Of a DNA stretch of 64,000 bases, positions 34,439-54,820 are shown piece after piece; position 1 is the stretch's first letter, and every line of letters starts with the position of its first letter. The translations under genes and the position numbers were made by a program. Origin of the DNA: Planctomycetota bacterium. Its GTDB lineage: Bacteria; Planctomycetota; Phycisphaerae; Phycisphaerales; SM1A02. Under the pieces are notes generated by a model. That model ran no database searches, was not told the DNA's origin, and saw nothing but the letters and a program-made list of their open reading frames with translations. The stretch spans positions 176,195-240,194 of the forward strand of contig JADFIR010000001.1 in the NCBI GenBank assembly GCA_022566535.1, written 5' to 3'.

Positions 34439-34906
34439 ATGCGTTCTCGAATCAAGAACCGGATCCGCCGGGCATTCACGCTGATCGAAATTCTGATCGT
34501 CGTGGTGATTCTGGGCATCCTCGCGGCCATCGTGATCCCGCAGTTCACCGATGCGTCGCAGCAAGCCATGGAATCCAGCGTGGTCACCCAGTTGCAGACG
34601 CTGCGCAGCCAGATCGAGCTGCACGACATCCAATGGCCGATGCGGCCGTTTGACCCGATCGTCGACGCTCTGGCGCCGTGGGGCCAGTTGACTACCGGCG
34701 ATTTGGTCTTTGATCCCGACTACGACGGCGAGTACCTCATGAGCCCGCCGATCAACCCGTTGCAGAGCTCCAACACGGTCGCCGCCTTGCCGGGTGCCGG
34801 CGTCGGCTGGACTTGGAACGATGCCAACGGCTGGGGCGTCAACCTCTACGCCGTGGACGAGAATGGCCTTCAGTTCGACATCGATGGCGATGGCATCTTC
34901 GAATAA
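34439..34906 (+). CDS. prepilin-type N-terminal cleavage/methylation domain protein (major pseudopilin/pilin candidate)
   Basis: AAGGAG 9 nt upstream of the ATG. MRSRIKNRIRRA-FTLIEILIVVVILGILAAIVIPQF with Glu at +5. Its own strong terminator lies downstream. Confidence 0.9.
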   Translation: MRSRIKNRIRRAFTLIEILIVVVILGILAAIVIPQFTDASQQAMESSVVTQLQTLRSQIELHDIQWPMRPFDPIVDALAPWGQLTTGDLVFDPDYDGEYLMSPPINPLQSSNTVAALPGAGVGWTWNDANGWGVNLYAVDENGLQFDIDGDGIFE

Positions 34907-34938
34907 GCAGACCGCCCGAGTTTAGACGACTCTCAGAC

Positions 34939-34969
34939 GCCGGCGCGGGAACGCGCCGGCTTTCTTTTT
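34939..34969 (+). terminator. rho-independent terminator
   Basis: GCCGGCGCG-ggaa-CGCGCCGGC followed by TTTCTTTTT, 33 nt after the pseudopilin stop. Confidence 0.75.
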
Positions 34970-35071
34970 GGGTGGAAGCGGGAAGGTGATAGACCCGTAG
35001 TGATGGGCCAAGAGGTGATGGCTCGCAGGTGGGAGGGTCAGGGGTCCGCGTGAGTCGGCGGCGCGCTTGCT

Positions 35072-35755
35072 GTGGGCTGGGAGGCTGCAATGGGGCTGAG
35101 CACCGTTCATCGCAGACGACAAAGGTGGCGGGGCGGTGGAACGCTGGCCGGGCCGCTGATCACGCTTTCGCTCGTCAGTACGCTAAGCGTCACGGCGGTG
35201 GTTGTTGCACCTCGGTTCCTCGCGGCCGGGAGTGTGCAGCCGCAAGTGCAAGCGGCTCGAGCTGATGCTCATCAGGAACAGATCGATGCGTTAGCGGCCT
35301 TGATCGGGCGCAGCGTGGGGGTGCTGGCCATTCAGCAACGAGGTCCCACGCCCTACCTGGAGATGGTCCTGTGGCTGCAGGACGACGACTCCGAGGGAAT
35401 CCAGGACCAGGTCGATGAAAGCGAACTGGCGGTGCTGAGCCACAGCCAGGTGCTCCGAACCATCACCATCTACCGGCTGGCCGATGGCGAGGAGGCCGTA
35501 GCGGAAGGCCAGTGGGACGCGCGGCAGCCGGCCGGGGCCGCATTCTGCGATCGCTGGCGGGCCGATCCCCGTGTCGGATCGATGGTCCTGATCGCAGGTG
35601 TATCGGACATGTGGGTTGAACCGTTGGAACCGCCGCAGGAGGGGTCTCAGCGGCTGCGCATCGAGCTTACCTGGGCATCGGATTCGGCCGATGGTGCTGA
35701 TGAGGCGTCAGTGCTGGTGGACGCTGTGGTGTCGGCCGCCGGCGATGGGGAGTGA
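35072..35755 (+). CDS. hypothetical protein with one N-terminal hydrophobic segment (possible degenerate minor pseudopilin)
   Basis: 227-aa ORF. GPLITLSLVSTLSVTAVVVAPRF but no G-FTLIE motif. Acidic C-terminus. Ends 4 nt before the next gene. Confidence 0.45.
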   Translation: MGWEAAMGLSTVHRRRQRWRGGGTLAGPLITLSLVSTLSVTAVVVAPRFLAAGSVQPQVQAARADAHQEQIDALAALIGRSVGVLAIQQRGPTPYLEMVLWLQDDDSEGIQDQVDESELAVLSHSQVLRTITIYRLADGEEAVAEGQWDARQPAGAAFCDRWRADPRVGSMVLIAGVSDMWVEPLEPPQEGSQRLRIELTWASDSADGADEASVLVDAVVSAAGDGE

Positions 35756-35758
35756 GTC

Positions 35759-36439
35759 ATGAAGCTGGACGCTGCCGGCAACGCAATGGTCAAGGTCACC
35801 AACTTCGGCGAGATCGAGTTCGGCCGAGGCACATCGCCCTCAAGCGGATCATCGAGGCCCGCCGGTACGCCGCACGTTGGTGCGCGGCACGGAACGGTCG
35901 TGGCGCGCGGCTACACACTCATCGAACTCATCCTCGTGATGGGCATCCTTGCGCTGGCCGCAGCGCTGCTGGTGCCGCACCTCGTGGACCGCGACAGCCT
36001 GGCCGTCCAGTCGGCGGTTCGCTTGATCATCGCCGATCTGAGCTTCGCTCAGTCGGACGCATTGGCGAATCAAGAGTACCGTCGCATCCAGTTCTACGCC
36101 GACGGCCGGGGCTACTGCCTGTATCGCGTCACCGATGCCGACTTCGCGGACCCATTCGATCCGAACCTGGTCGATTACGATTACCTTCTTGATCCACTAC
36201 ACGCGCAGCGGGACTATATCGTTGACTTCACTGAAGGCAGCCGATTCGAGGGCATCAGCATCAGCGCGGTGAATATTGACGGGGGGACGCGGCAGATCAC
36301 CTACGACGCGCTGGGCGGGACGGTCGTGGCGGTGGGTACGCCGGGCACCGGTGGCCAGATCACAGTTTCATCTCCGTCCGGCGACTACCGGATCGACATC
36401 GCGCCGTTTACCGGCAAGTTGACGGTGACCAAGTTGTAG
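35759..36439 (+). CDS. GspH/FimT-like pseudopilin
   Basis: ARG-YTLIELILVMGILALAAALLVPHL prepilin motif with Glu +5. The leader is unusually long (50 aa) from the ATG at 35759 (GGGGAG upstream). The in-frame GTG at 35900 would give the leader MARG. Confidence 0.7.
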   Translation: MKLDAAGNAMVKVTNFGEIEFGRGTSPSSGSSRPAGTPHVGARHGTVVARGYTLIELILVMGILALAAALLVPHLVDRDSLAVQSAVRLIIADLSFAQSDALANQEYRRIQFYADGRGYCLYRVTDADFADPFDPNLVDYDYLLDPLHAQRDYIVDFTEGSRFEGISISAVNIDGGTRQITYDALGGTVVAVGTPGTGGQITVSSPSGDYRIDIAPFTGKLTVTKL

Positions 36440-36486
36440 GCGCAGCGGCCTTCCCATGGTCGCCGCGAGCTGATGAGGATAGATGT

Positions 36487-37641
36487 GTGTTCGCAGGGCG
36501 CTTTTCGTCGGCAATAGGATCGGTGGGGATCGACCTCGGTACCCGCGGGATCAAGCTGCTTCAGGTTCGCGAACACGGCGGCGAACTGAAAGTGGTCGGG
36601 GCGGGAAGAGTCGATGCCAAAGCGGGCGATTCCTGGGTTGAAGACCGCAAGGCACTGACTGATCAACTGCGGGCCGCGTTTGCCTCCGGCGGATTCACCG
36701 GCCGGCGGTGCGTGCTCAGTCTCCCTCGCGGCGAGGTCCGCATGCAGTTGGTTCGACTGCCGAAGATGCCTGATAATGAGCTGCGCCAAGCAGTCGTCTG
36801 GGAAGCCTCGCAGCGCTTCGGATTCGATCGCGAGGCGATGGAGGTGGATGCCATCCGAACCGGGGCGTCGCTGCAAGACGGCGAGCGCCGCGACGAGATT
36901 CTTCTGATCGCTGTCTCACATGATGTGATCAACGCCTGGGTCGAGCCGGTGATGGCCGCCGGTCTGCGCCCGATGGCTATCGAGACGCACTTCACGGCAT
37001 TGGCGCGGGCGTTCAGCCGACAGTCCCGCCGTGAATCCGACCGTTCGGTAACCCGCGTCGTATTGGATGTCGGCGCCTCGGGTTCTACCGTGATGATTCT
37101 TCGCGGCGATCAGATCGCTTTCTGCAAATCGATCTCGGTCGGGGGTGAGCAATTCGACCAGGCGGTGGCTGAACATCTTCAGATGGACGTGGCAGCGGCA
37201 AGGGAGTTGCGGGCGGCCCGCATCGCCGCCGCCACCGATCAGCCCAATGCTCGGCCGATCACCGAACCCTCCATTGACCGGGCGGTGTATGACGCGGTCC
37301 GACCGCTGTTGGGTAGTTTCGCGAAAGAGGTGATGCTCTGTATTGGCTACTACGGGGTCATGTTCCGGGGCTATCCCCCCCAACGGCTGATTCTCACCGG
37401 GGGCGATGGGTTGGAGCCGCGACTTGACGAAACGCTCTTGCAGCAGTGCAGGATTCCGGTGGTGCTCGATGAGGACGGCTCGACCGTCAGTTGTTTGATG
37501 GAACAGATACAGGCCATCCTGCACCGTGCCCCCGGACCGCCGGCGTGGTGGGCTGTGGCGGCCGGCCTCAGCTTGCGAGGAATCTCGGTGGGCAGATTGA
37601 AGAGGCTGCAGGCGGCCGCCTGCGGCACGGAGGCGGCATGA
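36487..37641 (+). CDS. pilM: PilM-like actin-fold pilus assembly protein
   Basis: SVGIDLGTRGIKLLQV N-terminal phosphate-1 motif, about 380 aa, followed by PilN/O-like genes. Confidence 0.8.
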   Translation: MFAGRFSSAIGSVGIDLGTRGIKLLQVREHGGELKVVGAGRVDAKAGDSWVEDRKALTDQLRAAFASGGFTGRRCVLSLPRGEVRMQLVRLPKMPDNELRQAVVWEASQRFGFDREAMEVDAIRTGASLQDGERRDEILLIAVSHDVINAWVEPVMAAGLRPMAIETHFTALARAFSRQSRRESDRSVTRVVLDVGASGSTVMILRGDQIAFCKSISVGGEQFDQAVAEHLQMDVAAARELRAARIAAATDQPNARPITEPSIDRAVYDAVRPLLGSFAKEVMLCIGYYGVMFRGYPPQRLILTGGDGLEPRLDETLLQQCRIPVVLDEDGSTVSCLMEQIQAILHRAPGPPAWWAVAAGLSLRGISVGRLKRLQAAACGTEAA

Positions 37642-38324
37642 AACAACGCAACATTGATCTCGTGCCCGATTCGATCCGTGTTCGCAGTCAGGCCGGCGTG
37701 GTGGCTGGGCGATATGTCGCTGCCCTCCTGATCGCGATCGCCCTGATGGTGGTGACGGTTACCCATTCCCGTTTGGTACTCGATCGGGCTCACAAGCGAT
37801 TGCGGGTGGCGGAGGAACAGGCAGACCTGGTTCTGTCGGCGGAAGCCAAGGCTGATCAGTTGCGAAGCAGGCTCGACGACACCCACGACCAGATCCGCCG
37901 CTACAGGCTTATCGCAATGCCGCTGGAGGTCAGTCGTGTCATCGCCACCGTCACGAATGAGTTGCCGACCAGTGCAACGTTGGATCGAATCGACCTCTTT
38001 GCCGGCAGCCGTCGGACGAATCGCTCGGCTCGGAGCAGAGGCATCAGCGCTGAGGATGGGCCGGCTCCGCGCATTCTTAGTGGGGAGCTGAGTGGATTTG
38101 CGGCGACGGACCAGGAAGTTGCGGAAATCGTGGCCAGGCTTGAGGCGTTGGGACTTTTCAAGCAGGTCGGCCTCAATTTCAGTCGCACCCGCCCGATGCG
38201 AGGGCGCGGCGCGCGAGAGTTTCGAATCAGCTTCCGCATCGATATGGACGTTGAATACGACGTCGTCGATCGTGCCCGCCCCGAGCTCCAGGCCAGTCAA
38301 GAGGGAGCGCACGATGTCCAGTAG
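37638..38324 (+). CDS. PilN-like bitopic assembly protein
   Basis: MKQRNIDLVPDSIR followed by the TM helix YVAALLIAIALMVVTV. ATGA overlap with pilM. Confidence 0.65.
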   Translation: MKQRNIDLVPDSIRVRSQAGVVAGRYVAALLIAIALMVVTVTHSRLVLDRAHKRLRVAEEQADLVLSAEAKADQLRSRLDDTHDQIRRYRLIAMPLEVSRVIATVTNELPTSATLDRIDLFAGSRRTNRSARSRGISAEDGPAPRILSGELSGFAATDQEVAEIVARLEALGLFKQVGLNFSRTRPMRGRGAREFRISFRIDMDVEYDVVDRARPELQASQEGAHDVQ

Positions 38325-38886
38325 CAAACATCTTCGGATCGCGATCCTCGCCGTGGTCATTGTCGTGACCGTGGGGGGACTGTTGCTTGTCTGGCCGTCC
38401 TACCGCGAGGCGAAGGCGCTCAACCATCAAGCCGCCGTACTTCGCAACAAAGGCGAAGCCTACAACATCCAAGTCGAAGTGATCGATCGGCTTACTGCCG
38501 ATCTGGATGAAATGACCCGCCGGGTGGCGACGGAACACAAGGTCATTCCCGAGTCCTCAGACATTGCCGGGCTGATGCGAGTGCTGTCGATGCCGGTGGA
38601 CGGGGTGACTATCCGCGACCAAACGTTCACAACCGGCCAGCCCAAAGAAGCCGTGGTCGGCGGCGATCTTACTGCGATGGCCACGCCTCTGACGATCGAC
38701 ATGGTTGCGCGGTTCGACTCAATTTTCGCGCTGATCCAGGCGGCGGAATCGTTGGACCGCCTACTGCGTGTCGAGTCATTGAACATGGTCTGCGAGCATC
38801 CTGAGGGAGAGGATGAATTGTTCATAAGTGCCTCGGTGAGTCTGGATGTGATCTATGACCCGCCGGGGGCGAGGGAGGATGGTTGA
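38314..38886 (+). CDS. PilO-like bitopic assembly protein
   Basis: N-terminal TM helix IAILAVVIVVTVGGLLLV, a coiled coil, then an alpha/beta C-terminal part. 11-nt overlap with the previous gene. Confidence 0.6.
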   Translation: MSSSKHLRIAILAVVIVVTVGGLLLVWPSYREAKALNHQAAVLRNKGEAYNIQVEVIDRLTADLDEMTRRVATEHKVIPESSDIAGLMRVLSMPVDGVTIRDQTFTTGQPKEAVVGGDLTAMATPLTIDMVARFDSIFALIQAAESLDRLLRVESLNMVCEHPEGEDELFISASVSLDVIYDPPGAREDG

Positions 38887-39505
38887 GATGGTCTTGGTGC
38901 TCAGGCGACTGTGGATTCAGATCACCTCCGACCGCAAGCGGTTCGGCATCTTGTGCGCGATGTTGGCGGTGGGGCTGCTGTTGTGGGCGAGAATAATCGT
39001 GACTTCCAATTTGCCGCGCACGGCCGTGGCCAATGATCCCAAGCCGCCGGCCAGGGGAGGTTTACAGCCTCGCGGAGGTGTCTGGGGAACATCCGATAAG
39101 CACCAGGGGCCTCCTGTGCGGGTCGAGATGTCGCGCTTGCCGTTACGAGATCCATTCTTGATCAGCGCCCAACACTTTCCCAAACCAACCCCGGTTGACA
39201 TGTTGGCCCAAGATCAGGCGAAGTTACGACGAGATACGACCGAAAACCCAGAACAAGCGGAAGCCCGGTTGATCGACCAACTCCGGGCTTTGATTGAACG
39301 CTTCGAGTTGGAAGCGGTGATGCAGGGTCGCCCGATGGCCGTGATCAACGGAAGAACCTATCGGTTGCTCGATTGGATTCCCGCGATCGAAAACAGCAAG
39401 ATCCGCTTCCAGCTGGTTGAAGTCGGACATCGATCAGTAGTCCTCGAATTCGAGGGTCGCCGGTTCGAGTTGGAGATGGAGCATCCAGGCAGTGCCCAGC
39501 GCTAG
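38879..39505 (+). CDS. PilP/GspC-like protein (HR-domain-like C-terminus)
   Basis: TM helix FGILCAMLAVGLLLWARIIV. The C-terminal AVINGRTYRLLDWI...FQLVEVGHRSVVLEFEGRRFELEM resembles secretin-binding beta domains. Confidence 0.5.
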   Translation: MVEMVLVLRRLWIQITSDRKRFGILCAMLAVGLLLWARIIVTSNLPRTAVANDPKPPARGGLQPRGGVWGTSDKHQGPPVRVEMSRLPLRDPFLISAQHFPKPTPVDMLAQDQAKLRRDTTENPEQAEARLIDQLRALIERFELEAVMQGRPMAVINGRTYRLLDWIPAIENSKIRFQLVEVGHRSVVLEFEGRRFELEMEHPGSAQR

Positions 39506-39538
39506 CAGCGCCCGGGTCAGGCAGGAGTAAACCCGATT

Positions 39539-41653
39539 ATGAATCCGAAGATCAGATGTACTGGAAGGCGTTTTCTTGGGAGCACAGGGGCCGTTTGTGC
39601 GTGTTGGGTGGTGCTGGCAGCGCCGGCGCTGGGGCAAGACTGGGCGGATCAGGCGAACACCGATGTCAACGTGACCGACTACGGCACGGTGGATCTGGCC
39701 GTTCAGGAGACCGACCTGTCACAAGTCCTTCAAATGCTCTCCATCCAGAGCAAGAAGAACATCATCACCTCCAAGAGCGTGTCCGCCACCGTCACCGCCA
39801 ACCTCTACGACGTCACGTTCCACGAGGCGCTCGACGCCATTCTGCGCGTCAACGGCTACGGCTACCTCGAAGAGGGCAACTTCGTCTACATTTACACATT
39901 GGCGGAGCTTGCGGAAATGGAGGCTTCGAGCCGTGTCACTGAAAGCCGCATCTTTGAGCTCGACTACCTTTCCGCCGTTGACGCCAACGAGTTCATCACA
40001 CCGCTGCTCAGCGACGTCGGCCAAAGCTCCCACCGCGGGGAGGTGCAGCCGGGGTTCCAGCCCGACATAAGCGATGGGGGAGCGGACTCGTACGCGTACA
40101 GCGCCAAGCTGGTGATCAATGATTTTCCCGAGAACCTTCGGGCCATCGCGGACCTGCTCGACGATCTTGACACCCCGCCGCAACAGGTGCTCATCGAGGC
40201 CACCGTCCTTCAGACTGCTTTGGACGAGACCAACGCCTTCGGCGTGGACTTCTCTGTGATCGCCGATCTGGATTTCATCGATCTGCACAGCCCGCTTGGG
40301 GTGGTCAACAATCTCCTGTCCGGCGACGACGTGAAGAAAGGATTTCAACCGACCGATAACGAGTCGTTTGGGGGGGCATCGACCGTCGGGAACACGGCAG
40401 GTGCGGGCGGCTTGAAGCTCGGCCTTATCACCAACAACGTCAGCGCCTTCTTGCGAGTTCTCGACGAGGTGACCGACACCACGGTACTGGCCAGACCCAA
40501 GATCATGGCGCTGAACCGCCAACGGGCCGCAGTGCTCGTGGGTGCTCGGGTCGGATACCTCTCGACCACCGCGACCCAGACCACCACGACGCAGACCGTC
40601 AAGTTCCTTGACACGGGTATCTCGCTGATCTTCCGCCCGTTCATTTCCAAGGATGGAACGATCCGTATGGAGCTGTCCCCCAAGGTGTCTGAGGCCAGCC
40701 TGCGCGCCGTCACCGACTCCCAGGGACTGCAGGTGACGATTCCCGACGAGCTGACCAACGAGCTGACGACCAACGTTCGCATCCGGGATGGGCAGACGTT
40801 GGTGCTGGGCGGCCTGTTCAGAGAATCCACACGGGTCAGCCGCAGGCAGATTCCGTGGCTCGGCGATATTCCGATCATCGGCGCTGCCTTCCGTGGGCAG
40901 GACGATACGGTCGATCGCGATGAGATCATTTTCCTCATCACCCCTTCCATCGTGCCTGACGATGTCTTATGGGCGACCGGTCAAGAGACGCTGGCCTACT
41001 CCAACGCGATCGCGGTCGGCGCGCGGGCAGGTCTGCTTCCATTCAGCCGCGAAGGCATCACCAACAACCACAATCTTGACGCCATGGACGCGTATGAGCG
41101 CGGCGATCTCGATATGGCCCTGTACCACGTCAACATCTCGCTACGGTTGAGGCCTGTGCAGCCGGCGATGCTCAGGCTCCGCCAGGAGATCACGGGTGAG
41201 AAGGAGAGGGTTCACGAGCGCAGCATGATGGAGCGAGCGTTCCGCAAGGTACTGGGGCGTGGGCCCTCGCAAGAAGCCGCCTCCGGCCAGACGCCGCCTG
41301 GGCCGAGGTCGATGCCGATGCGCTCCTTTACGTTGCAAGAGCTCATGGTGGATGAGCCGGGGCATTGGTCCGACATGCACGAGCCCGGCACGGGCGATTC
41401 GAGCACAGGCACCGAATCGGTGTCGCAGGAATCGTCCGGCGAGTGGTTCGAATGGCATGGAGACGGGGATGCCGATGACGCCGAGGAGGCAGGTTCCGGA
41501 ATCGATTCCGCCGGTGCGACGCCGCAGACGAGCGGGGGGCAGCCGAGTCACGAGGAGCAGGGCGAGGCCGAAGGCCCCCACTCAAACGCCGCGACGATTC
41601 CCGACGACGAATGGCTCGTCGCACAGCGGCTGCGGCGCATGTTTTCCAGGTAG
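39539..41653 (+). CDS. secretin (GspD/PilQ family) with long acidic C-terminal tail
   Basis: QTLVLGGLFRESTRVSRRQIPWLGDIPIIGAAFRG secretin core signature. N-domains with VTANLYDVTFHEALDAIL. Confidence 0.9.
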   Translation: MNPKIRCTGRRFLGSTGAVCACWVVLAAPALGQDWADQANTDVNVTDYGTVDLAVQETDLSQVLQMLSIQSKKNIITSKSVSATVTANLYDVTFHEALDAILRVNGYGYLEEGNFVYIYTLAELAEMEASSRVTESRIFELDYLSAVDANEFITPLLSDVGQSSHRGEVQPGFQPDISDGGADSYAYSAKLVINDFPENLRAIADLLDDLDTPPQQVLIEATVLQTALDETNAFGVDFSVIADLDFIDLHSPLGVVNNLLSGDDVKKGFQPTDNESFGGASTVGNTAGAGGLKLGLITNNVSAFLRVLDEVTDTTVLARPKIMALNRQRAAVLVGARVGYLSTTATQTTTTQTVKFLDTGISLIFRPFISKDGTIRMELSPKVSEASLRAVTDSQGLQVTIPDELTNELTTNVRIRDGQTLVLGGLFRESTRVSRRQIPWLGDIPIIGAAFRGQDDTVDRDEIIFLITPSIVPDDVLWATGQETLAYSNAIAVGARAGLLPFSREGITNNHNLDAMDAYERGDLDMALYHVNISLRLRPVQPAMLRLRQEITGEKERVHERSMMERAFRKVLGRGPSQEAASGQTPPGPRSMPMRSFTLQELMVDEPGHWSDMHEPGTGDSSTGTESVSQESSGEWFEWHGDGDADDAEEAGSGIDSAGATPQTSGGQPSHEEQGEAEGPHSNAATIPDDEWLVAQRLRRMFSR

Positions 41654-41873
41654 GGGTTCTGGCAGGCGGCTGACAACCCCCCTCCCATGCCGATGACCCG
41701 GGTTGGGGGCACTCGTTTCCCTTTGTCACGTTCGATGACCTCGTGGAGGTTGCCAGCGTGACCGACGATGCAGACTTCATGAAGTAAAGGCACAGTGATC
41801 GGAGCGGGGAGCGATGGGGGGAGCAGGTGTTATGCATGGTCAACCTCTGTTGCGCAGATCGGAGACGCGATAC

Positions 41874-43115: not shown

Positions 43116-43157
43116 GCGTGGCAGGAGGGCACGCGACGCCGATGCGAGGGAGGGACA

Positions 43158-44642: not shown

Positions 44643-44654
44643 TTCAGGAGAGAG

Positions 44655-45071
44655 TTGATGGCTTCTCGAATCCTTGTGGTTGATGACGAGGCACACATTC
44701 TGCATGTGCTCTCGGTCAAGCTTGGTAACGCGGGACTCGAGGTCAGCACCGCGGTCGATGGCGAAGAGGCCTTTGAGATGGCGTGTCAGGATTTGCCCGA
44801 TCTCATCATCACCGACTTTCAGATGCCGTACATGACCGGGTTGGAATTGTGCCGGGCGTTGGCGGGCAATGCTACCACGGCACACATTCCCGTACTGATC
44901 CTCACCGCCCGCGGCTATGCGCTAGATGACGAGGATCTGAAGATCGGCAGCATCAAAGGGGTCCTGAGCAAGCCGTTCAGCCCGCGATCAGTGCTTCAAC
45001 TCGTTGAGGATTTGCTGGCAACCGAGGCAGGCGGCGATCAGACGAAGCGACTGGGGCCGGAGGCAGCGTGA
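44655..45071 (+). CDS. single-domain response regulator (CheY-like receiver)
   Basis: ILVVDDE, DLIITDFQMPYMTG (phospho-Asp), LTARG, SKPFSP. Confidence 0.9.
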   Translation: MMASRILVVDDEAHILHVLSVKLGNAGLEVSTAVDGEEAFEMACQDLPDLIITDFQMPYMTGLELCRALAGNATTAHIPVLILTARGYALDDEDLKIGSIKGVLSKPFSPRSVLQLVEDLLATEAGGDQTKRLGPEAA

Positions 45072-46720
45072 GCCATAGCGACACCCAACTCGACGCCAAG
45101 CTCGCCCACCAGCTGCGACAGAGACTCCGGCAGGTGGGGCTGCTGCTGCTTGACTGCGACAAGGCAGGCGGGCTGATCTCACGGCCTCAGCCGGGCACGG
45201 ATTGGCTGGCCGATCTGTTCTGCCAGGCCGCCATCTTCACCAGCGCTGTCCGTCAGGCAGCTGCGGCCTGGTCCCAGCAAAGCACGCCGATGCCGGTGGA
45301 GCTCTTCCCTGGATGTTGGCTCTCGCCGATCCCCAGGACCAATCGCCGACGCCGAACGGGCTATGCCCTGGCGGTGATCCTCACTGAGCGCTTTCTGGAC
45401 TGCGAACAGCTCTCGGCGATGTGCCAGGCCGCACGCGCGGACTTCGAGGTCATTCGACGCATGCTGGCCGACCTTCCGCCGGTCGGCCCGTCGGATGTCA
45501 GCAGAACAGCGGCGATGGTCAGCCACGCGCTTGAGGATCACTGGAAACGAATCTCCGACAGCCAGGCGATGGAGAGCGTGGGGCAGCAGCTTGCCGAGTC
45601 GTACGAAGAAATCAACCTTCTCTATACGATCATCCAGAGCATGTCGGTGGTGGATCAGCCGGAGCGGTTTGTGACCATCGCCTGCGAAGAGTTGCTCGCC
45701 ACGCTGCCCTATGCATGGATCGGCGCGCAGCTGGCGGACGATCGGGAGACGCTCAAGAAGCTTGCCGGCCGGCTGATCATCGCGGGCGATTCGGGCCAGC
45801 CGCAATCCCAGCTTCGGGAGTTGACCCGCAGCATCTTGGCCGAGGCGAAGCCTGATGTGCCAATCGTGCTTGAGCCCGCAACCAACCCCCTGCACGCCAA
45901 GTATGTCCAGCTCGGGAAGACCGTTCTGGTCCATCCGGTCAGCCGCGACGGGAAGGTGATTGGCCTGCTCATCGCGGGTGAGAAGCAGGGGCAGGACACG
46001 ACCGCGTCAAACGTGGATTTGAAACTTCTCGGCGCGACTGCATCCCACATGAGCATCTTCCTCGAGAACGCGGCGCTCTACGACGACCTCAACGCGATGT
46101 TCCTCGGCACCCTCGAAGCGCTGACGGCTTCCATCGATGCGAAGGACACATACACTTGCGGTCACTCCCAGCGCGTCGCGCATCTGACGCAACAACTGGC
46201 TGAAGCGATGGGCCTCGATGAGCACACGGTCAGCCGGATGCATATCGCCGGCGTTGTGCATGACGTGGGCAAGATTGGCGTGCCCGAATCGGTGCTCACG
46301 AAGCCCGGACGACTCACCGAGGAGGAGTTCGCCTGGATGCGGCAGCATCCTCAAATCGGTTACCGCATCCTCAAGGATATCCCCCAACTTCGGGAAATCC
46401 TTCCCGGCGTGCTCTACCACCATGAGCGGTGGGACGGCAAGGGCTATCCCGAGGGTCTTTGCGGTGATCGCATCCCAAAGGTCGCCCGCATGATCGCGCT
46501 GGCGGACGCATTTGACGCCATGAGTTCGACCCGCACGTATCGGCCGGCGCTCTCGCGCGCGGCGGTGCTTCAAGAGATTATGGAGTGTGCAGGGACGCAG
46601 TTCGATCCTGAGTTCGCGCCGGTGTTCGTTCGGATCGATTTCAGCGGGTACGACCGCCTGTTCGCCGAGCATCGAGCCGGCGAGCAGAAGGCCTCGCAGG
46701 ACGAGGAGCAGGCCGCATGA
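45068..46720 (+). CDS. GAF-containing HD-GYP domain protein (c-di-GMP phosphodiesterase family)
   Basis: HSQRVAHL, VVHDVGKIGVPESVL, HHERWDGKGYPEGL. GTGA overlap with the receiver gene. Confidence 0.9.
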   Translation: MSHSDTQLDAKLAHQLRQRLRQVGLLLLDCDKAGGLISRPQPGTDWLADLFCQAAIFTSAVRQAAAAWSQQSTPMPVELFPGCWLSPIPRTNRRRRTGYALAVILTERFLDCEQLSAMCQAARADFEVIRRMLADLPPVGPSDVSRTAAMVSHALEDHWKRISDSQAMESVGQQLAESYEEINLLYTIIQSMSVVDQPERFVTIACEELLATLPYAWIGAQLADDRETLKKLAGRLIIAGDSGQPQSQLRELTRSILAEAKPDVPIVLEPATNPLHAKYVQLGKTVLVHPVSRDGKVIGLLIAGEKQGQDTTASNVDLKLLGATASHMSIFLENAALYDDLNAMFLGTLEALTASIDAKDTYTCGHSQRVAHLTQQLAEAMGLDEHTVSRMHIAGVVHDVGKIGVPESVLTKPGRLTEEEFAWMRQHPQIGYRILKDIPQLREILPGVLYHHERWDGKGYPEGLCGDRIPKVARMIALADAFDAMSSTRTYRPALSRAAVLQEIMECAGTQFDPEFAPVFVRIDFSGYDRLFAEHRAGEQKASQDEEQAA

Positions 46721-47052
46721 AGCTCAGCTATGAAGATCATGAGACGATTACTGTGCTGACGATCAGTGGCGAGCTGACCATTGACCAGGCCGATGGATTG
46801 CGACGATCCTGTCAGGACCGGTTTACAGCCGGCATCCGCGATGTTGTGCTCAACATGGAGTACCTGACGTTCGTCGATTCGGCGGGGCTGGAGGCGTTGT
46901 TGTGGATCATCGACGAGGCCTCGGAGCGTGGCGGACAGCTCCGTCTCGTCAGTCCGGATGAGACGGTCCGCAAGATCCTCGAGATCACCCGGCTGGATAA
47001 ACGGTTCAACATTCACGACAGCATTGAATCCGCCGCAAAGAGTCTGCGCTGA
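46717..47052 (+). CDS. STAS domain protein (anti-sigma-factor antagonist fold)
   Basis: 111 aa with VLNMEYLTFVDSAGLEALL (conserved phospho-Ser context DSAG). ATGA overlap with the HD-GYP gene. Confidence 0.85.
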   Translation: MKLSYEDHETITVLTISGELTIDQADGLRRSCQDRFTAGIRDVVLNMEYLTFVDSAGLEALLWIIDEASERGGQLRLVSPDETVRKILEITRLDKRFNIHDSIESAAKSLR

Positions 47053-47053
47053 T

Positions 47054-48802
47054 ATGGACCAACGTACGATGAATCAGAAGGAAGGCACTCATTCAACTCT
47101 TGACGTCGGTCCATGGCTTCAGGTCGGCGAGGCGCTCATCGACAAGGGGTACATCACCGCCAAACAGCTTGACGAAGCCCTGGAGCACCAGGCCCAAAAG
47201 GGCCACAAGAAACTCCTGGGCGAAGTCTTGGTGGATCTGAACTTCGTCACCGACGAGCAAGTGATCGAGGTCCTGGCCGAGGGATATGGCGTGCCGTTTG
47301 TCACGCAGGCGGCCAAGATCGCTGATCCGAAGGTTGTTGAACTACTGCCGCGCGAATTTCTGGAAGAGCACAGCCTTCTGCCGCTGTTCCTCGTTCGGGA
47401 CGTGTTGACCGTCGCGGTCTCCGAACCCGCCAACCTGTTCTTGGTCGAAGAGATTCAACGACTGACCGGGCACGAGGTGCAGATTGTGGCGACGACCACC
47501 GCGGAGATCGAGGCGTCGCTGCAAGCGTATCTCCCGGCCGCCAACGTCTTCGTAATCGACGATATTTATGAAGATATTGATGACGCGGACTTCAGCATCA
47601 TCGAGAAACAGGTCACCGAACTTGCGGACCTGGAGGAGGTCGCCGGCCGGAGTCCCGTGGTCAAGCTGGTGAACTACCTGATTTTTTCGGCGGTGCAGGA
47701 CGGAGCATCAGACATCCACATCGAACCCGATGATCACCGTCTTCGCGTCCGTTACCGTGTTGACGGGCGTTTGTTTGAAAAGCTCTTGCCGCCCTATCAG
47801 ATGCACGCGGCGATCACCAGCCGTATCAAGATCATGTCCAACCTCGATATCTCCGAGCGGCGTCTTCCACAGGACGGCGACATCCACACGTTGATGGAGG
47901 GCCGGCCGATTGATCTCCGAGTCTCCACCATGCCGGGAAAGTTCGGCGAGAAGGTGGTCATCCGCATCATCGATCATCGAACCTCCATTGTCTCGCTGGA
48001 CAAGCTCGGCTTCTCGCGCCAGATGTTCGAGGCATGGAAGGAGGTAGTCCGTCAGCCCAACGGTGTCGTGTTGGTGACCGGTCCGACCGGCTCGGGCAAA
48101 TCGACGACGCTGTATTCCGTGCTCAGTCTGCTGAACTCCGATGAGCTGAACATCTCCACGGTCGAAGATCCTATCGAAGCGAGCATCCCCGGCATCAACC
48201 AAACGCAGGTACACGAGAAGGCGGGATTCACCTTCGCGGCGGCGATGCGATCGATGCTGCGGCAAGACCCCGACATCATGATGGTGGGGGAGATTCGCGA
48301 CGGGGAGACCGCCTCCGTGACCACTCAGGCGGCCCTGACGGGACATCTGGCTTTCTCCACCCTCCACACGAACGACTCCCCCAGCGCGGTCACCCGGTTG
48401 ATCAACATCGGCATTGAGCCCTATCTGGTTGCGGCGACACTTCGCGGCGTCCTCGCCCAAAGGTTGGTTCGCAAAATCTGCCCCCATTGCAAGGAGTCCT
48501 ACGAACCTGATCAAGCGATCCGAGAGGCGGTGGAGCATTACTGTGGCACGGTCGAATGTCTCTACCGCGGACAGGGCTGCACCCGCTGCCGGGGAACGGG
48601 CTTTGCCGGGCGGATCGGCATCTTCGAGCTGATGATTCCAGATGAGATTCTGCTTGCGGCCATTGCCAGAGGCGCAACCCTCCAGGAGCTGAGGGAAATG
48701 CTTGCCAAAAACGGTTTCGTCACCCTGCGAGCGGACGGTATGGAAAAGGTACAGGGTGGGCTTACCACTGCTGGGGAGGTCTTCTACGTCACCAGCATGT
48801 GA
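47054..48802 (+). CDS. GspE/PilB-type secretion/pilus assembly ATPase with T2SSE_N (MshEN-like) N-domain
   Basis: Walker A VTGPTGSGKSTTLYS, Asp/His boxes, tetracysteine CPHC...CTRC. The ATG lies 1 nt after the STAS stop. Confidence 0.95.
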   Translation: MDQRTMNQKEGTHSTLDVGPWLQVGEALIDKGYITAKQLDEALEHQAQKGHKKLLGEVLVDLNFVTDEQVIEVLAEGYGVPFVTQAAKIADPKVVELLPREFLEEHSLLPLFLVRDVLTVAVSEPANLFLVEEIQRLTGHEVQIVATTTAEIEASLQAYLPAANVFVIDDIYEDIDDADFSIIEKQVTELADLEEVAGRSPVVKLVNYLIFSAVQDGASDIHIEPDDHRLRVRYRVDGRLFEKLLPPYQMHAAITSRIKIMSNLDISERRLPQDGDIHTLMEGRPIDLRVSTMPGKFGEKVVIRIIDHRTSIVSLDKLGFSRQMFEAWKEVVRQPNGVVLVTGPTGSGKSTTLYSVLSLLNSDELNISTVEDPIEASIPGINQTQVHEKAGFTFAAAMRSMLRQDPDIMMVGEIRDGETASVTTQAALTGHLAFSTLHTNDSPSAVTRLINIGIEPYLVAATLRGVLAQRLVRKICPHCKESYEPDQAIREAVEHYCGTVECLYRGQGCTRCRGTGFAGRIGIFELMIPDEILLAAIARGATLQELREMLAKNGFVTLRADGMEKVQGGLTTAGEVFYVTSM

Positions 48803-48813
48803 TGGGAGGGGCG

Positions 48814-50058
48814 ATGCCTGCGCAAAGCACATACACCTACAAGGCTCGGGACAGCAGCGGCGCCGTCGTCACCGGGTCGATGGTTGCCTCCAGTGCCGAC
48901 GATGTCAGTGCTCGCCTCCGAGCCGAGGGCAGCTTCGTCTTCGAAGTCGAAGAAAACCCAATGCGGGCGGTCCCCGAGTTGGATGAACAGCAGATTCGCC
49001 GCAGCGAGGCCTCTAAGAGCGTCAAACGAGAGGACGTCATTGGTTTCTGTCAGCAGTTGTCAGTGATGCTCGACACCGGCGTCCCGCTCGCTGAAGCGCT
49101 CGATTCATTCTGCCAGCAGACGCCTCGAAAGGAATTCCGCGGAGTTCTTGAGGTGCTCCGCGACGACATCCACAGCGGCGAACCGCTGTCAGCGGCTGCG
49201 GCGAAGTGGCCGCGCGTCTTCCCAGGGATGATGATTAGCCTGATGCGAGCCTCCGAAGCATCGGGAACCATGGCCACGATGTTGGGGCGAGTCGGTGATT
49301 ACCTCGCCAAGGAACGCCGCACGGCCAAGCAGATTAAAGGAGCCCTGAGCTACCCGATCTTCATGATGATCTCGGGTATCGCGATGACGGTGTTCCTGAT
49401 GTCGTTCGTGTTGCCTCGCTTTGCCAGAATCTACGACCAGCGAGCAGCCACGCTCCCGACGCCGACCAGGATTCTGCTGGGTCTTAGTGAGTTCGTTACC
49501 ACGCAGTACATGTGGTACGGCCCGGTCTTGACGGCCGTCGTCGTCGCGCTGGTCATTTGGGTCAAAAAGCCGTCCGGCCGACGTGTGTGCGACTGGATCC
49601 GCCTCCATTGTCCCGGCGTGCGAGGGATGTTCGGCCACTTGTACATCACCCGGACGACGAGGACCATGGCCACGTTGATGGCGGCCGGCGTCAATCTCCT
49701 GGACATCATCGACATCTGCCGGGGAGTCACGGGCAACGTCTATTACGCTGACCTGTGGGATTCCATGGAGGACGGAGTTCGAAAGGGCCAGCAGATCAGC
49801 GACGCGACCTTCGCCTGTTCGTTCATTCCGCCCAATGTCTCCTCGATGATCGCCGCCGGCGAGCGGTCCGGCCAACTCAGTAAGGTCATGGAGCGGATCG
49901 CGGAGTTCAGCCAGGAAGAGCTTGATTCCACGGTCAGGCAGGTCACCGCCTTCATTGAGCCGGTGATGATCATGTGTATGGGCGTGGTCATCGGTGGCCT
50001 CGCCCTGGCGCTACTGCTGCCGATCTTCAGCATGGGCAAGGTCATGGCCGGCGGATAA
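48814..50058 (+). CDS. GspF/PilC-type inner-membrane platform protein
   Basis: Two-fold repeated T2SSF architecture with 3 TM segments. ATG at 48814 is preceded by GGGAGGGG; the ORF opens at 48799. Confidence 0.9.
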   Translation: MPAQSTYTYKARDSSGAVVTGSMVASSADDVSARLRAEGSFVFEVEENPMRAVPELDEQQIRRSEASKSVKREDVIGFCQQLSVMLDTGVPLAEALDSFCQQTPRKEFRGVLEVLRDDIHSGEPLSAAAAKWPRVFPGMMISLMRASEASGTMATMLGRVGDYLAKERRTAKQIKGALSYPIFMMISGIAMTVFLMSFVLPRFARIYDQRAATLPTPTRILLGLSEFVTTQYMWYGPVLTAVVVALVIWVKKPSGRRVCDWIRLHCPGVRGMFGHLYITRTTRTMATLMAAGVNLLDIIDICRGVTGNVYYADLWDSMEDGVRKGQQISDATFACSFIPPNVSSMIAAGERSGQLSKVMERIAEFSQEELDSTVRQVTAFIEPVMIMCMGVVIGGLALALLLPIFSMGKVMAGG

Positions 50059-54472: not shown

Positions 54473-54820
54473 GGGGCCGAAATGGATTCGACCGGACAGG
54501 ATACGCTTGTCGTTGCGCGTCGTGGAGCATCCTTGCCACGTAAAAAGGATGCACATTAATAATTGCTGACACTCAGTTAGCACTCGCCGCTTAATTGCGG
54601 TGACGATCATCGGCCCGACGCCCGATGAGGCTGGTGATCGAAGACATCGGGCTGGTTCCAAAGGGTTGACAGGCCCCGGCGGAACGAGAAAACCGTCTGT
54701 CATGGCGAGGTGAAACGCCGTCGTTCGCGGTTCACCGAGCCGAGATCAAATGAACGACTACACGTGTAGACGCGGCCTGCTGACTGTTCCGGCACGGGGG
54801 TTCGATTCCCCCCGGCTCCA
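54473..54820 (+). ncRNA. ssrA: tmRNA (SsrA), one-piece, CCA not encoded
   Basis: 5' GGGGCCGAAATGGATTCGACCGGACAGG. 3' T-arm GGGGGTTCGATTCCCCC and acceptor CGGCTCC-A pairing with GGGGCCG, including the G3:U pair. Internal tag frame GCT GAC ACT CAG TTA GCA CTC GCC GCT TAA (54565-54594) encodes ADTQLALAA. Confidence 0.85.

Follow-up and report, generated by a model that had tools for sequence, protein, structure and literature searches.

The described systems closest to the locus analysed here are the type IVa pilus (T4aP) of Myxococcus and Geobacter (PilBCMNOPQ plus Tgl/PilF), the T2SS (Gsp/Xcp), the mannose-sensitive haemagglutinin (MSH) pilus of Vibrio and Aeromonas (mshI-Q) and, for its regulation, two c-di-GMP circuits. 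In T4aP, the INLLP peptide is the PilM-binding motif, and the minor pilins FimT and FimU of T4aP also belong to the family PF12019, which NCBI names GspH/FimT. In the RpfC/RpfG HD-GYP system, a sensor kinase acts via a receiver on a c-di-GMP phosphodiesterase. A precedent for such control of a pilus is PdeK/PdeR-FimX, in which a circuit of kinase and regulator-phosphodiesterase sets PilZ-PilB via local c-di-GMP (PMC11656802).

We analysed a window of 64 kb (64,000 nucleotides) and found it reasonably likely that its genes at 34439-50058 form a single, complete machine for a type IV filament that spans the envelope and follows the T4aP plan, with c-di-GMP gating probable. The lineage of this machine is known so far only from Phycisphaerae (Planctomycetota). 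Its type IVa-like parts are of a known kind, and the built-in four-gene signalling module is its unusual feature.

Extent and conservation of the gene cluster

All 15 genes of the block are present on the plus strand, as are the other features below, and their starts lie at or within about 15 nt of those given in an earlier note on this DNA. Its description of consecutive same-strand genes with short gaps or overlaps was borne out by family matches and by independent gene calls on the same-sequence ENA contig, which start at 34439, 35090, 35759, 36487, 37638, 38314, 38888, 39539, 41874, 43158, 44658, 45068, 46717, 47069 and 48814. From 5' to 3', the intergenic gaps are 183, 3, 47, -4, -11, 1 and 33 nt (first seven) and 220, 42, 15, -4, -4, 16 and 11 nt (last seven). 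The Pfam/NCBIfam families of the machine part are N_methyl, GspH/N_methyl (sub-threshold), PilM_2, PilN, PilO, Secretin, TPR, T2SSE with MshEN, and T2SSF; those of the signalling part are PAS-HisKA-HATPase, Response_reg, HD_5 (HD-GYP) and STAS. None of the equivalog models (PilB, PilQ, PilW, PilM, PilC) reached its cut-off for the block proteins.

The same gene order was observed in the relatives L004, L005, L008, L010, L025 and L026. Since it recurs with ATPases that are 59-98% identical, the block is not a chance arrangement. The cluster is kept gene for gene across many Phycisphaerales/Phycisphaerae assemblies, and recJ adjoins it in all close relatives. The host is a PVC member (Planctomycetota, Phycisphaerae), in agreement with the PVC-type origin proposed before.

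The limits of the block had been set at 34439-50058. The 15 genes are real, but the true 5' end is most likely the upstream PilZ gene (30649..30999, GTG start inferred) rather than the pilin gene, because relatives carry a PilZ gene directly before the pilin (110-112 aa and immediately 5' in L025 and L026). The small single-domain protein of about 116 aa matches Pfam PilZ with 27.4 bits (cut-off 22.5), and both c-di-GMP-binding motifs are whole in the translation (RxxxR as REHDR, DxSxxG as DYSPLG). Between the two genes lies that of a secreted 847-aa protein with beta-propeller repeats (31321..33864), recognised from its translation, repeat count and Pfam Rax2/DUF5122 propeller matches, with 12 WDGxxW blades and two dockerin-like repeats at the C-terminus. 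This gene is found in the close relative L004, is missing from L025 and L026, and is a lineage-specific insertion. Its product could be an adhesin, a cargo or without relation to the machine.

Neither a PilT-like ATPase nor an A24 peptidase (PilD) was found in the 64-kb window, as noted earlier, or in eight related loci. This absence had been read as a sign of a secretion device. The Acinetobacter reference loci also have pilBCD and pilMNOPQ apart, with pilT beside neither; as pilT and pilD are often unlinked, their absence from the window decides neither for a pilus nor for a secretion device.

Components of the filament machine

The major (pseudo)pilin of 155 aa (34439..34906) matches N_methyl with 31.2 bits (cut-off 21.2) and carries the class III signal RRA|FTLIEIL, with Ala at position -1 (G or A among relatives). 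It has zero cysteines and an acidic C-terminal end, DIDGDG. Its best profile match is GspG (46 bits), which spans the N-terminal helix only, and phmmer placed XcpT (35 bits) and GspG (31 bits) on top. Against solved structures, the order was Geobacter PilA-N (43 bits), Thermus PilA5 and then GspG (30.5 bits). The major pilin gene has its own strong terminator, an intrinsic hairpin of 9 G-C pairs followed by TTTCTTTTTG (34939..34960), 33 nt past the stop codon.

The next gene (35090..35755), previously called an orphan TM protein, is instead predicted to encode a minor pilin of GspJ/XcpW-type fold. It has a degenerate N-terminal signal (RRGG|TLxGxLxTLS, without Glu5) and zero Pfam or NCBIfam matches, and all of its 74 homologues come from Planctomycetota. 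For its AlphaFold2 model (pLDDT 77.9, pTM 0.69), the top five Foldseek matches were all XcpW/EpsJ (probability 0.85-0.96), at TM-scores of just 0.3-0.4 and weak E-values (0.01-0.7, a range that also covers the connector model below). The following GspH/FimT-like minor pilin (35759..36439, signal RG|YTLIEL) has Pfam matches slightly under cut-off to N_methyl (20.4 bits) and GspH (19.1 bits), and NCBIfam matches to ComGD and GspH, both under cut-off. By comparison with L025 and L026, translation probably begins at the GTG at 35900; the initial 20 or so codons of the long 35759 reading frame are a relic of a gene for a TM protein of about 100 aa, retained in these relatives. GspI or GspK was not recognised in the cluster.

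The alignment proteins are encoded separately. PilM (36487..37641), the actin-like cytoplasmic stator, matches PilM_2 with 78.4 bits (cut-off 27) and TIGR01175 with 116.6, under the cut-off of 133; its only reference match was A. baumannii PilM. Its stop overlaps the start of PilN as ATGA. PilN (37638..38324; Pfam PilN 26.2 bits, cut-off 22.8) has NIDLVP at its N-terminus, similar to the INLLP peptide, and is followed by PilO (38314..38886; Pfam PilO 29.9 bits, cut-off 22). The gene at 38888..39505 had been described as PilP/GspC-like, which stood at the fold level (AlphaFold2 and Foldseek) and found no support beyond it. We classify its product as a PilP/GspC-HR-type connector, which has no lipobox and runs from an N-terminal TM helix through a disordered linker into a small beta domain at the C-terminus, with no GspC PDZ or coiled-coil domain. 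The C-terminal domain was modelled with pLDDT above 90, and the top Foldseek matches were GspB, GspC-HR (TMt 0.74), Myxococcus PilP and P. aeruginosa PilP (TMt 0.63). Its 247 homologues are all from Planctomycetota and all annotated 'hypothetical'.

The secretin (39539..41653; Pfam Secretin 145.4 bits) has a signal peptide, N0, a single N1 and the secretin domain, and is extended at the C-terminus by about 230 aa, in part acidic and of low complexity. NCBIfam scores were PilQ 210.7, GspD 206.9 and MshL 146.9 (cut-off 250), all under cut-off. Against solved structures, PilQ scored 101-111 bits in alignments that take in N0 and everything up to where the secretin domain ends, and GspD 56-81 bits, with the alignment beginning only at N1. 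The best reference was A. baumannii PilQ (125 bits), followed by MshL (83), XcpQ (78) and GspD (72). Directly 3' in all relatives compared is the gene of a TPR lipoprotein (41874..43115; lipobox LTGC, TPR families), a candidate pilotin of PilF/PilW/Tgl type by its matches to the PilW (70 bits, cut-off 154) and Tgl (31.8) models.

The extension ATPase of the PilB/GspE/MshE family (47069..48802, alternative ATG 47054; T2SSE 430.6 bits, MshEN 60.3 bits) consists of an MshEN_N-like 53-residue motif, MshEN/N1, N2 and a CTD with intact Walker A GPTGSGKS and zinc site CxxC...CxxC. NCBIfam scores were nearly level for PilB (583.2, cut-off 675.65) and GspE (581.9, cut-off 630.25), and the core is almost equidistant from PilB (43.5-50.5% identity) and GspE (48%). 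At full length, the best solved structures were Geobacter PilB (488 bits) and Myxococcus PilB (475 bits), aligned from residue 14-19, compared to 389-395 bits for EpsE and 390 bits for MshE. The platform of the PilC/GspF family (48814..50058; T2SSF 186.1 bits) scored under cut-off for GspF (302.3) and Thermus PilC (283.6), and phmmer ranked PilC (187 bits) above MshG (170), XcpS (146) and GspF (145).

In a neighbour-joining tree, which was crude and held few references, the Phycisphaerae ATPases formed their own clade outside GspE/XcpR and MshE, as sister to diderm PilB (bootstrap 52%). The secretin tree likewise gave a Phycisphaerae-only clade outside GspD, MshL and proteobacterial PilQ, with its deep nodes unresolved. 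Neither protein falls inside a characterised clade, no described gene order is an exact match, and all equivalogs are under cut-off, which agrees with the earlier view of the locus as neither textbook T4aP nor T2SS. Its mixed T4P/T2SS parts list did not hold: the comparisons fall mostly on the T4aP side, and that list took GspH as a T2SS mark, yet PF12019 is GspH/FimT.

In a rather unlikely alternative, though one with some weight, the locus would be a T2SS-like device in which a short endopilus of the GspG-like pilin drives folded exoproteins through the secretin; no retraction ATPase would be needed, and possible cargoes would be the beta-propeller/dockerin protein encoded nearby or CAZymes. 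The GspG and XcpT matches of the pilin, its cysteine-free sequence and DIDGDG end, the GspJ-type fold and GspH match of the minor pilins, the TM-anchored connector with its best matches to GspB and the GspC-HR domain, an ATPase core that scores GspE as high as PilB, the absence of PilT from the window and related loci, and a secreted dockerin-bearing protein encoded directly upstream are all in its favour. However, PilM and PilN have a gene each in place of a fused GspL, the connector has no GspC PDZ or coiled-coil domain, GspI and GspK were not recognised, the secretin with its single N1 is nearer PilQ and the platform nearer PilC, the ATPase is outside the GspE/XcpR clade, and the GspG matches of the pilin are limited to the shared N-terminal helix. 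The propeller protein cannot be a conserved cargo, since its gene is absent from L025 and L026.

We already disfavoured an MSH-type pilus, with the MSH backbone order and a c-di-GMP-binding ATPase, and consider it highly improbable. The Aeromonas locus mshI-I2-J-K-L-M-N(TPR)-E-G has the identical backbone order, and the ATPase passes the MshE-type c-di-GMP motif model NF053729 (56.8 bits, cut-off 38). Yet MshE, MshL and MshG all scored lower than the T4aP references, the MshL model fell short of its cut-off, MshE branches apart from the Phycisphaerae ATPases, PilM/N/O, the connector and the TPR protein gave zero matches to MshI/J/K/N, there is no MshM, and the pilins lie upstream, not downstream, of the machine genes.

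Where the comparisons discriminate, nearly all components are nearer T4aP than T2SS, as judged from separate PilM/N/O, the secretin, the platform, the ATPase at full length and the pilin in its N-terminal helix. On the T4aP plan, PilM, PilN, PilO and the TM-anchored connector would link the inner membrane to the PilQ-like secretin, and the TPR lipoprotein would probably assist secretin insertion into the outer membrane. The PilB-like hexameric ATPase on the PilC-like platform would polymerise the 155-aa pilin, and at least two minor pilins, GspJ-like and GspH/FimT-like, would prime the filament. We directly observe which genes are present, how they are conserved, their family or fold, whole motifs for catalysis and binding, and their place in the trees; the form of the filament (surface pilus or short endopilus) and its use are what we infer.

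The signalling module and probable c-di-GMP control

The four signalling genes between those of the TPR lipoprotein and the ATPase had been passed over as filler. They are the most distinctive and conserved trait of the cluster, with the HK-REC-HD-GYP-STAS insert kept in relatives down to 59% ATPase identity. The first encodes a membrane-anchored PAS histidine kinase (43158..44642; PAS, HisKA and HATPase_c matches) with two N-terminal TM helices and the H-box HELRTP at residue 270. The stand-alone receiver (44658..45071; Response_reg 78.7 bits) has an intact receiver Asp and no output domain, and its stop overlaps the next start by 4 nt. The HD-GYP c-di-GMP phosphodiesterase (45068..46720; HD_5 130.6 bits, HD 75 bits) has whole motifs (HD at residue 398; HHERWDGKGYP, with GYP at residue 459), an N-terminal region of about 340 aa including a weak GAF match and, as best NCBIfam match, the REC-HD-GYP phosphodiesterase NosR family (130 bits, under cut-off). 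The STAS/anti-sigma-antagonist-like protein (46717..47052; STAS 78.5 bits; TIGR00377 82.3 bits, cut-off 53.45) retains the DSAG serine at residue 55. No diguanylate cyclase is encoded within the cluster. The ATPase passes the MshE-type c-di-GMP motif model NF053729, and its MshEN motif is degenerate: compared to the relaxed motif in the literature, both halves deviate at position 1, and the second half also at its G and Q.

Taken together, the module, the PilZ protein and the degenerate MshEN motif suggest that machine assembly is probably gated by c-di-GMP, post-translationally. In the proposed circuit, the kinase would phosphorylate the receiver, which would then govern the neighbouring HD-GYP phosphodiesterase, the two genes resembling an RpfG-type REC-HD-GYP enzyme split in two. 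Local c-di-GMP would be sensed by the PilZ protein at the head of the cluster and possibly also by the ATPase through its MshEN-like N-terminus, with the STAS protein probably acting as a partner-switching adaptor. The direction of the c-di-GMP effect and the protein-protein contacts in circuit and machine are likewise what we infer.

The module might instead only time the expression of a T4aP-like competence pilus for DNA uptake, or of one with another non-motility role such as polysaccharide-particle adhesion, which we consider improbable. Weak pilin matches include ComGC, ComGD and ComGE, secretin matches include HofQ, recJ adjoins the cluster, and T4P-mediated chitin adhesion by a planctomycete has been reported in work cited by PMC11131199. 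However, all Com and Hof matches are far under cut-off and weaker than those to PilQ and GspG, none of comEA, comEC and dprA is nearby in the window, the recJ neighbourhood may be mere synteny, and transcriptional control is unlikely because the receiver has no DNA-binding output.

Comparison with known systems

Like the Myxococcus/Geobacter T4aP, the locus has separate PilM, PilN and PilO genes, an HR-domain protein before the secretin, a secretin of N0-N1-secretin layout, a TPR lipoprotein, an ATPase with N-terminal MshEN-type domain and tetracysteine site, and a PilC-type platform; in its N-terminal helix the pilin is nearest Geobacter PilA, and the best full-length ATPase matches are Geobacter and Myxococcus PilB. 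It differs in that all genes form a single collinear locus with just two or three minor pilins and no PilY1 or linked pilT or pilD. The secretin has the C-terminal extension and no AMIN domains, the PilP-like protein is TM-anchored as GspC and not a lipoprotein as T4aP PilP, the ATPase and secretin are outside the reference clades, and the HK-REC-HD-GYP-STAS module stands in place of a PilS/PilR-type transcriptional pair.

With the T2SS it shares a secretin, a GspE-family ATPase, a GspF-family platform, an HR-domain connector, GspH- and GspJ-type minor pilins, a cysteine-free major subunit and a single ATPase. Unlike the T2SS, it has neither a fused GspL nor a recognisable GspM, GspI or GspK, its connector is without PDZ domain, its secretin has one N1 compared to N1-N3, all Gsp equivalogs are under cut-off, and it falls outside the GspE and GspD clades. 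The MSH pilus has the same backbone order, with a TPR protein between secretin and ATPase, and an MshEN-type ATPase motif, but every shared part is less similar than to T4aP, the alignment proteins are without detectable similarity, MshM is missing and the pilins are on the opposite side of the machine genes.

The signalling genes recall PdeK/PdeR-FimX-PilZ-PilB of Xanthomonas/Lysobacter, which runs from kinase to receiver to c-di-GMP phosphodiesterase to PilZ-domain protein and extension ATPase (PMC11656802). In contrast to this circuit and RpfC/RpfG, the HD-GYP phosphodiesterase is split from its receiver, there is an extra STAS protein and no FimX homologue in the cluster, the PilZ protein retains the canonical c-di-GMP-binding motifs, and the whole circuit lies within the pilus operon.

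Gene block and conservation

The block at 34439-50058 of the window (G+C approximately 62%) consists of 15 consecutive genes on the + strand, with intergenic gaps of -11 to 220 nt and 4-nt overlaps at 3 junctions, and an independent annotation of an identical ENA contig (L022) gives matching gene starts. Profile searches with Pfam and NCBIfam bore out the gene list of the earlier note. The family matches, in gene order, are an N_methyl pilin (g01), no family (g02), a GspH/N_methyl pilin slightly below threshold (g03), PilM_2, PilN, PilO, no family (g07), secretin, TPR, a PAS-HisKA-HATPase kinase, a receiver, HD_5 (HD-GYP), STAS, T2SSE with MshEN, and T2SSF.

Relatives of the ATPase number in the thousands. 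The best 120 are 74-100% identical to it; those named among these 120 are all Planctomycetota, Phycisphaerales or Phycisphaerae MAGs, and the same titles were obtained for secretin-anchored loci of species-representative genomes. The entire block is present in L004 and L005 (protein identity 91-98%), in L010 (a closed 4.29-Mb contig, ATPase 80% identical) and in L025 and L026. In L008, a Phycisphaerae MAG, the part from secretin to platform is present with an ATPase just 59% identical; the genes upstream have no Pfam matches there, and PilMNO were not confirmed at that distance. The locus L006 retains the secretin and TPR genes alone. Because the block recurs across L004, L005, L008, L010, L025 and L026, we conclude that it is an old feature of the class Phycisphaerae and not a chance arrangement. 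In the Phycisphaerales MAG WQYP01000050.1 (L007), the secretin, TPR, kinase, receiver and HD-GYP genes lie together at 4968-11653 and the ATPase gene is not adjacent: no STAS, ATPase or platform gene follows the HD-GYP gene, and the genes that come next lie on the other strand. The signalling genes therefore go with the secretin part of the cluster.

In L025 and L026, a gene for a 110-112-aa PilZ protein lies immediately 5' of the pilin gene, right behind the divergent serC-serA-DUF1015 genes. Its counterpart in the window, at approximately 30649-30999, encodes a protein matching Pfam PilZ with 27.4 bits (cut-off 22.5). The c-di-GMP receptor motifs of PilZ, RxxxR and (D/N)xSxxG, read REHDR and DYSPLG in this protein and RETDR and DYSNDG in that of L026. 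The cluster most likely begins further upstream, at the PilZ gene. In this lineage only, the PilZ and pilin genes are separated by an insertion at 31321-33864 (+), common to the close relative L004, which encodes an 847-aa secreted beta-propeller protein with 12 WDGxxW blades and two dockerin-like repeats. This repetitive gene is a frequent breakpoint of assemblies, and similar repeat proteins occur near the cluster in L010.

Downstream, a 167-aa GAF_2-only protein is encoded at 50283-50786 (+), with the platform gene on one side and recJ on the other. It was considered as a 16th member of the cluster, near which it is conserved in relatives, but other genes intervene in L010, and it probably does not belong to the machine. 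It resembles a free methionine-R-sulfoxide reductase.

Other loci of the window were also recorded. An exosortase/PEP-CTERM-type exopolysaccharide locus at 4220-18023 (+) encodes a Poly_export/SLBB protein, exosortase EpsH, a DUF3485-like protein, a 1606-aa TPR protein, an 888-aa chain-length/AAA_31 protein, an epimerase and a GT4 glycosyltransferase. Were c-di-GMP to control this locus as well, it could be regulated together with the pilus machine. An MNT (NTP_transf_2) and HepT-like toxin-antitoxin pair at 2015-2654 (-) adjoins a radical-SAM (lipoyl-synthase-like) gene according to the gene calls of L022. At 19976-22611 (-), a 612-aa DNA methylase (N6_N4_Mtase, UPF0020) is found with a neighbouring ORF without family. 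The sole low-GC stretch of the window (20001-22000, GC 0.566) holds the methylase region, which may be a mobile or restriction-modification island.

Pilins, signalling genes and proposed control

The pilin g01 (34439-34906) matches N_methyl with 31.2 bits, above the Pfam cut-off, and the GspG model with 46.3 bits, below the cut-off of 88.85 and over the N-terminal helix only. This helix is closest to Geobacter PilA-N. The protein has no cysteines and its C-terminus is acidic. A 9-bp G-C hairpin followed by a T-run lies 3' of this major pilin gene, which fits the expectation for a highly expressed structural subunit. Rfam searches found no c-di-GMP riboswitch or other RNA element upstream of the pilin gene; their sole match above gathering score in the window is a full-length tmRNA gene (RF00023, 147 bits) at 54473-54823 (+).

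The product of g02 (35090-35755) has 74 homologues, which share the N-terminus RRGG-TLxGxLxTLS. This N-terminus resembles a class III signal in degenerate form, in which Glu5 is missing. The structure of g02 was predicted with a pLDDT of 77.9 and a pTM of 0.69, and each of its top five structural matches is a GspJ-type minor pseudopilin, with probabilities of 0.85-0.96, low TM-scores and weak E-values; we read it as a putative minor pilin on the basis of this model. The GspH match of g03 (35759-36439) is below the cut-off, and neither GspI nor GspK was recognised in the cluster. Relatives have one or two extra small genes in the pilin region, including that of a TM protein of approximately 100 aa. 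In L025 and L026 this TM protein is encoded separately, between the homologues of g02 and g03, and its C-terminus matches "...AMVKVTNFGEIEF", which is encoded at 35759-35899, the 5' end of g03 as annotated. The stretch 35759-35899 appears to be a deletion remnant fused in frame; of the TM-protein gene, just the last 20 or so codons survive in the window, joined to the 5' end of g03. Because of this fusion, the true start of g03 is probably the GTG at 35900.

Four signalling genes (43158-47052) separate the TPR lipoprotein gene from the ATPase gene, and we infer the functions of their products from motifs and gene order. The histidine kinase combines two N-terminal TM helices with a cytoplasmic PAS domain, and its H-box is intact; the receiver has no output domain. 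The start of the HD-GYP gene overlaps the receiver stop by 4 nt. Its 550-aa product (HD_5, 130.6 bits) carries the HD dyad at residue 398 and an intact HHERWDGKGYP with GYP at residue 459, that is, the HD dyad and HHExxDGxGYP signature of a predicted HD-GYP phosphodiesterase, and in NCBIfam it matches a REC-HD-GYP phosphodiesterase family best. The STAS protein retains the serine of DSAG and passes the anti-sigma-antagonist superfamily model. No GGDEF gene is present in the window.

In the mechanism that we propose, a signal at the kinase would set the phosphorylation state of the receiver, which would modulate the HD-GYP enzyme and with it the c-di-GMP level near the machine. This level would be read by the PilZ protein, perhaps also by the ATPase N-terminus, and these would either let the ATPase engage productively with PilM and PilC or keep it from doing so, and in this way control filament growth through the secretin. 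The STAS protein may be a phosphorylation-dependent adaptor. In Xanthomonas and Lysobacter, the PdeK/PdeR-FimX kinase and regulator-phosphodiesterase pair tunes PilZ-PilB via local c-di-GMP (PMC11656802); the same review makes no mention of HD-GYP, STAS or Planctomycetes. A complete machine adjoining its own kinase, receiver, HD-GYP, STAS and PilZ genes makes local c-di-GMP control of an extension ATPase directly testable.

ATPase, platform, secretin and their lineage

The ATPase (47069-48802) matches T2SSE with 430.6 bits, above the Pfam cut-off. It scores 583.2 bits with the PilB model TIGR02538 (cut-off 675.65) and 581.9 bits with the GspE model TIGR02533 (cut-off 630.25), and is thus below the level of a T2SS GspE equivalog. 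Among solved structures, PilB/PilF of Geobacter, Myxococcus and Thermus are best, with 463-488 bits and alignments from residue 14-19, vs 389-395 bits for Vibrio EpsE, aligned from residue 119 or 165. Core identity is 43.5-50.5% across all references, the highest being to Myxococcus and Geobacter PilB. Reference loci were fetched for comparison, including Aeromonas MSH, E. coli Gsp, P. aeruginosa Xcp and A. baumannii pilBCD and pilMNOPQ, among others. In a bootstrapped neighbor-joining tree (450 columns, rooted on a PilT), three Phycisphaerae ATPases group in a clade of their own (100%), which is outside the XcpR and GspE clade (100%), away from MshE, and sister to the diderm PilB clade but not inside it, with a bootstrap of only 52% for this placement. 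Both this tree and that of the secretin were built by neighbor joining from BLOSUM62 distances with few references, and their deep nodes are not to be over-read.

The platform protein matches T2SSF with 186.1 bits, above the Pfam cut-off. Its scores are 302 bits with the GspF model (cut-off 424) and 284 with the PilC model (cut-off 700), and against the fetched references they decrease from PilC (187 bits) to MshG (170) and to XcpS and GspF (approximately 146).

The published MshEN motif consists of two tandem 24-residue stretches, RLGxx(L/V/I)(L/V/I)xxG(L/V/I)(L/V/I)xxxxLxxxLxxQ, with a 5-residue spacer, and mutation of its hydrophobic positions lowers c-di-GMP binding more than 10-fold (PMC5013675). 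The N-terminus of the ATPase matches the MshE-related c-di-GMP motif model NF053729 with 56.8 bits (cut-off 38) and retains the hydrophobic positions. Position 1 is Q in motif I and L in motif II instead of the published R, the spacer has 7 residues vs 5, and motif II has N for G and G for Q. In 120 ATPase homologues, positions 1 and 2 read QL (46), RL (32) or PL (19). Because the motif model is passed and the hydrophobic residues are kept, yet the motif deviates, binding of c-di-GMP by the ATPase N-terminus is plausible but not assured.

The secretin is likewise below the cut-off of each model: 210.7 bits for PilQ (TIGR02515, cut-off 284.35), 206.9 for GspD (TIGR02517, 351.35) and 146.9 for MshL (250.2). 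Of the solved structures, PilQ is best with 101-111 bits, aligned from N0, vs 56-81 bits for GspD, aligned from N1; against fetched references the order is PilQ (125 bits), MshL (83), XcpQ (78) and GspD (72). Pfam finds a single Secretin_N stretch, in place of the N0-N1-N2-N3 arrangement of a T2SS GspD, and no AMIN domain. In the neighbor-joining tree (410 columns), the Phycisphaerae clade is apart from PilQ (100%) and GspD (100%) and lies outside the clade of GspD and XcpQ; the deep nodes are unresolved. Past its secretin domain, the protein has a C-terminal extension of approximately 230 aa (40979-41653, residues ~480-704), with a helical stretch and then an acidic low-complexity tail; the secretins of relatives (704-785 aa) have C-terminal extensions of similar or greater length. 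The TPR lipoprotein encoded next has the lipobox LTGC and TPR repeats, and scores 70 bits with the pilotin model PilW (cut-off 154) and 31.8 with Tgl (cut-off 225).

The generic model of type IV filaments comprises an ATPase, a platform and a pilin, with or without secretin and peptidase (Denise et al. 2019, PMC6668835). A T2SSE-family ATPase, a T2SSF-family platform and a pilin with class III signal peptide are co-localised here, and no NCBIfam equivalog for ATPase, secretin or platform reaches its cut-off. Another such generic one-locus type IV filament cluster is that of the Ralstonia solanacearum megaplasmid CP052087.1, where gspG, F and E share a compact locus with the genes of four small hypothetical proteins, of a secretin annotated PilQ and of three pseudopilins.

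The gene order and the MshEN match prompted a comparison with the MSH pilus. For every shared part the similarity is lower than to T4aP; the alignment proteins have no matches in the Aeromonas MSH reference, no MshI, MshJ, MshK, MshM or MshN was found, MshL is below its cut-off and MshE branches separately. This candidate was rejected. Together, the model scores, the structure and reference comparisons and the two trees show a machine of T4aP-like plan in a lineage of its own, outside every characterised clade. The outcome that the earlier note named as refuting its view, ATPase and secretin branching within a characterised clade and a gene order matching a described system, did not occur. A hybrid of T4P and T2SS parts, as the note had it, is not the best description either.

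Full-text searches turned up no description of the cluster, or of any Phycisphaerae pilus machine. The main text of Denise et al. 2019 does not mention Planctomycetes and leaves many such systems generic (PMC6668835). Hardly any work exists on the type IV filament systems of Planctomycetota, and a single-locus system is a handy model for filament building or protein secretion in PVC bacteria, whose envelopes are unusual. The deep, separate position of ATPase and secretin may help to resolve the origin of T2SS and MSH from T4aP-like ancestors.

Pilus or secretion device

Neither a PilT retraction ATPase nor a prepilin peptidase (PilD/GspO, A24 family) is encoded in the 64-kb window, in approximately 7 kb to the left of it or in any of eight related loci; the window and these loci each have one T2SSE-family ATPase. 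The class III signals of the pilins (G or A at -1, Glu5) imply that a prepilin peptidase is encoded elsewhere. The earlier note had taken the mixed parts list, the single ATPase and the missing PilT and peptidase as pointing to a pseudopilus/secretion device. The observation itself stands and extends to the eight loci; it does not discriminate between pilus and secretion, because in the Acinetobacter loci that we fetched pilBCD and pilMNOPQ are themselves at separate places, with pilT beside neither.

On balance, we favor a T4aP-like pilus machine as the probable, if far from certain, identity of the system. The split PilM and PilN, PilQ-like secretin, PilC-like platform, full-length PilB-like ATPase, PilZ and TPR lipoprotein all lean this way. 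A secretion device with a T2SS-like endopilus we consider unlikely; the features that lean towards it are the cysteine-free pilin and its acidic C-terminus, GspG as the best profile for the pilin helix, the GspJ-like minor pilin and the TM-anchored HR protein g07 (38888-39505). A bolder view, which we offer as speculation and think rather improbable, is that of a distinct Phycisphaerae-wide class of type IV filaments between T4aP and T2SS/MSH. Its motor would be wired directly to the in-operon phospho-relay/HD-GYP/STAS/PilZ circuit, and it may need no retraction ATPase, e.g. as a c-di-GMP-gated export or adhesion device typical of PVC envelopes.

The alignment proteins belong to the evidence for the T4aP-like pilus. 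PilM_2 (78.4 bits, cut-off 27), PilN (26.2, 22.8) and PilO (29.9, 22) all pass Pfam and are encoded by three separate genes, as in T4aP; PilM scores 116.6 bits with TIGR01175 (cut-off 133) and matches only PilM in the fetched reference loci. The fused cytoplasmic and periplasmic GspL of T2SS, with its partner GspM, was not found, PilM and PilN being separate: the sole GspM signal has 16.1 bits vs a cut-off of 60, and Comamonas GspL and GspM have no phmmer match to the cluster proteins.

All 247 homologues of g07 are planctomycetal and annotated as hypothetical, and the protein has no sequence-family match in Pfam or NCBIfam and no lipobox, a TM helix being present instead. An AlphaFold2 model from 43 input sequences shows this helix, a disordered linker and a small beta domain that is predicted with confidence. 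The top structural matches of the domain are GspB, the HR domain of GspC (TMt 0.74) and PilP of Myxococcus and Pseudomonas, with weak E-values. Because of these matches, g07 is taken as the putative link from the inner-membrane platform to the secretin, TM-anchored and not lipidated. In T4aP, PilP is a lipoprotein with an HR beta-sandwich that binds the N0 domain of the secretin; the predicted fold of g07 matches PilP, and its anchor is a TM helix.
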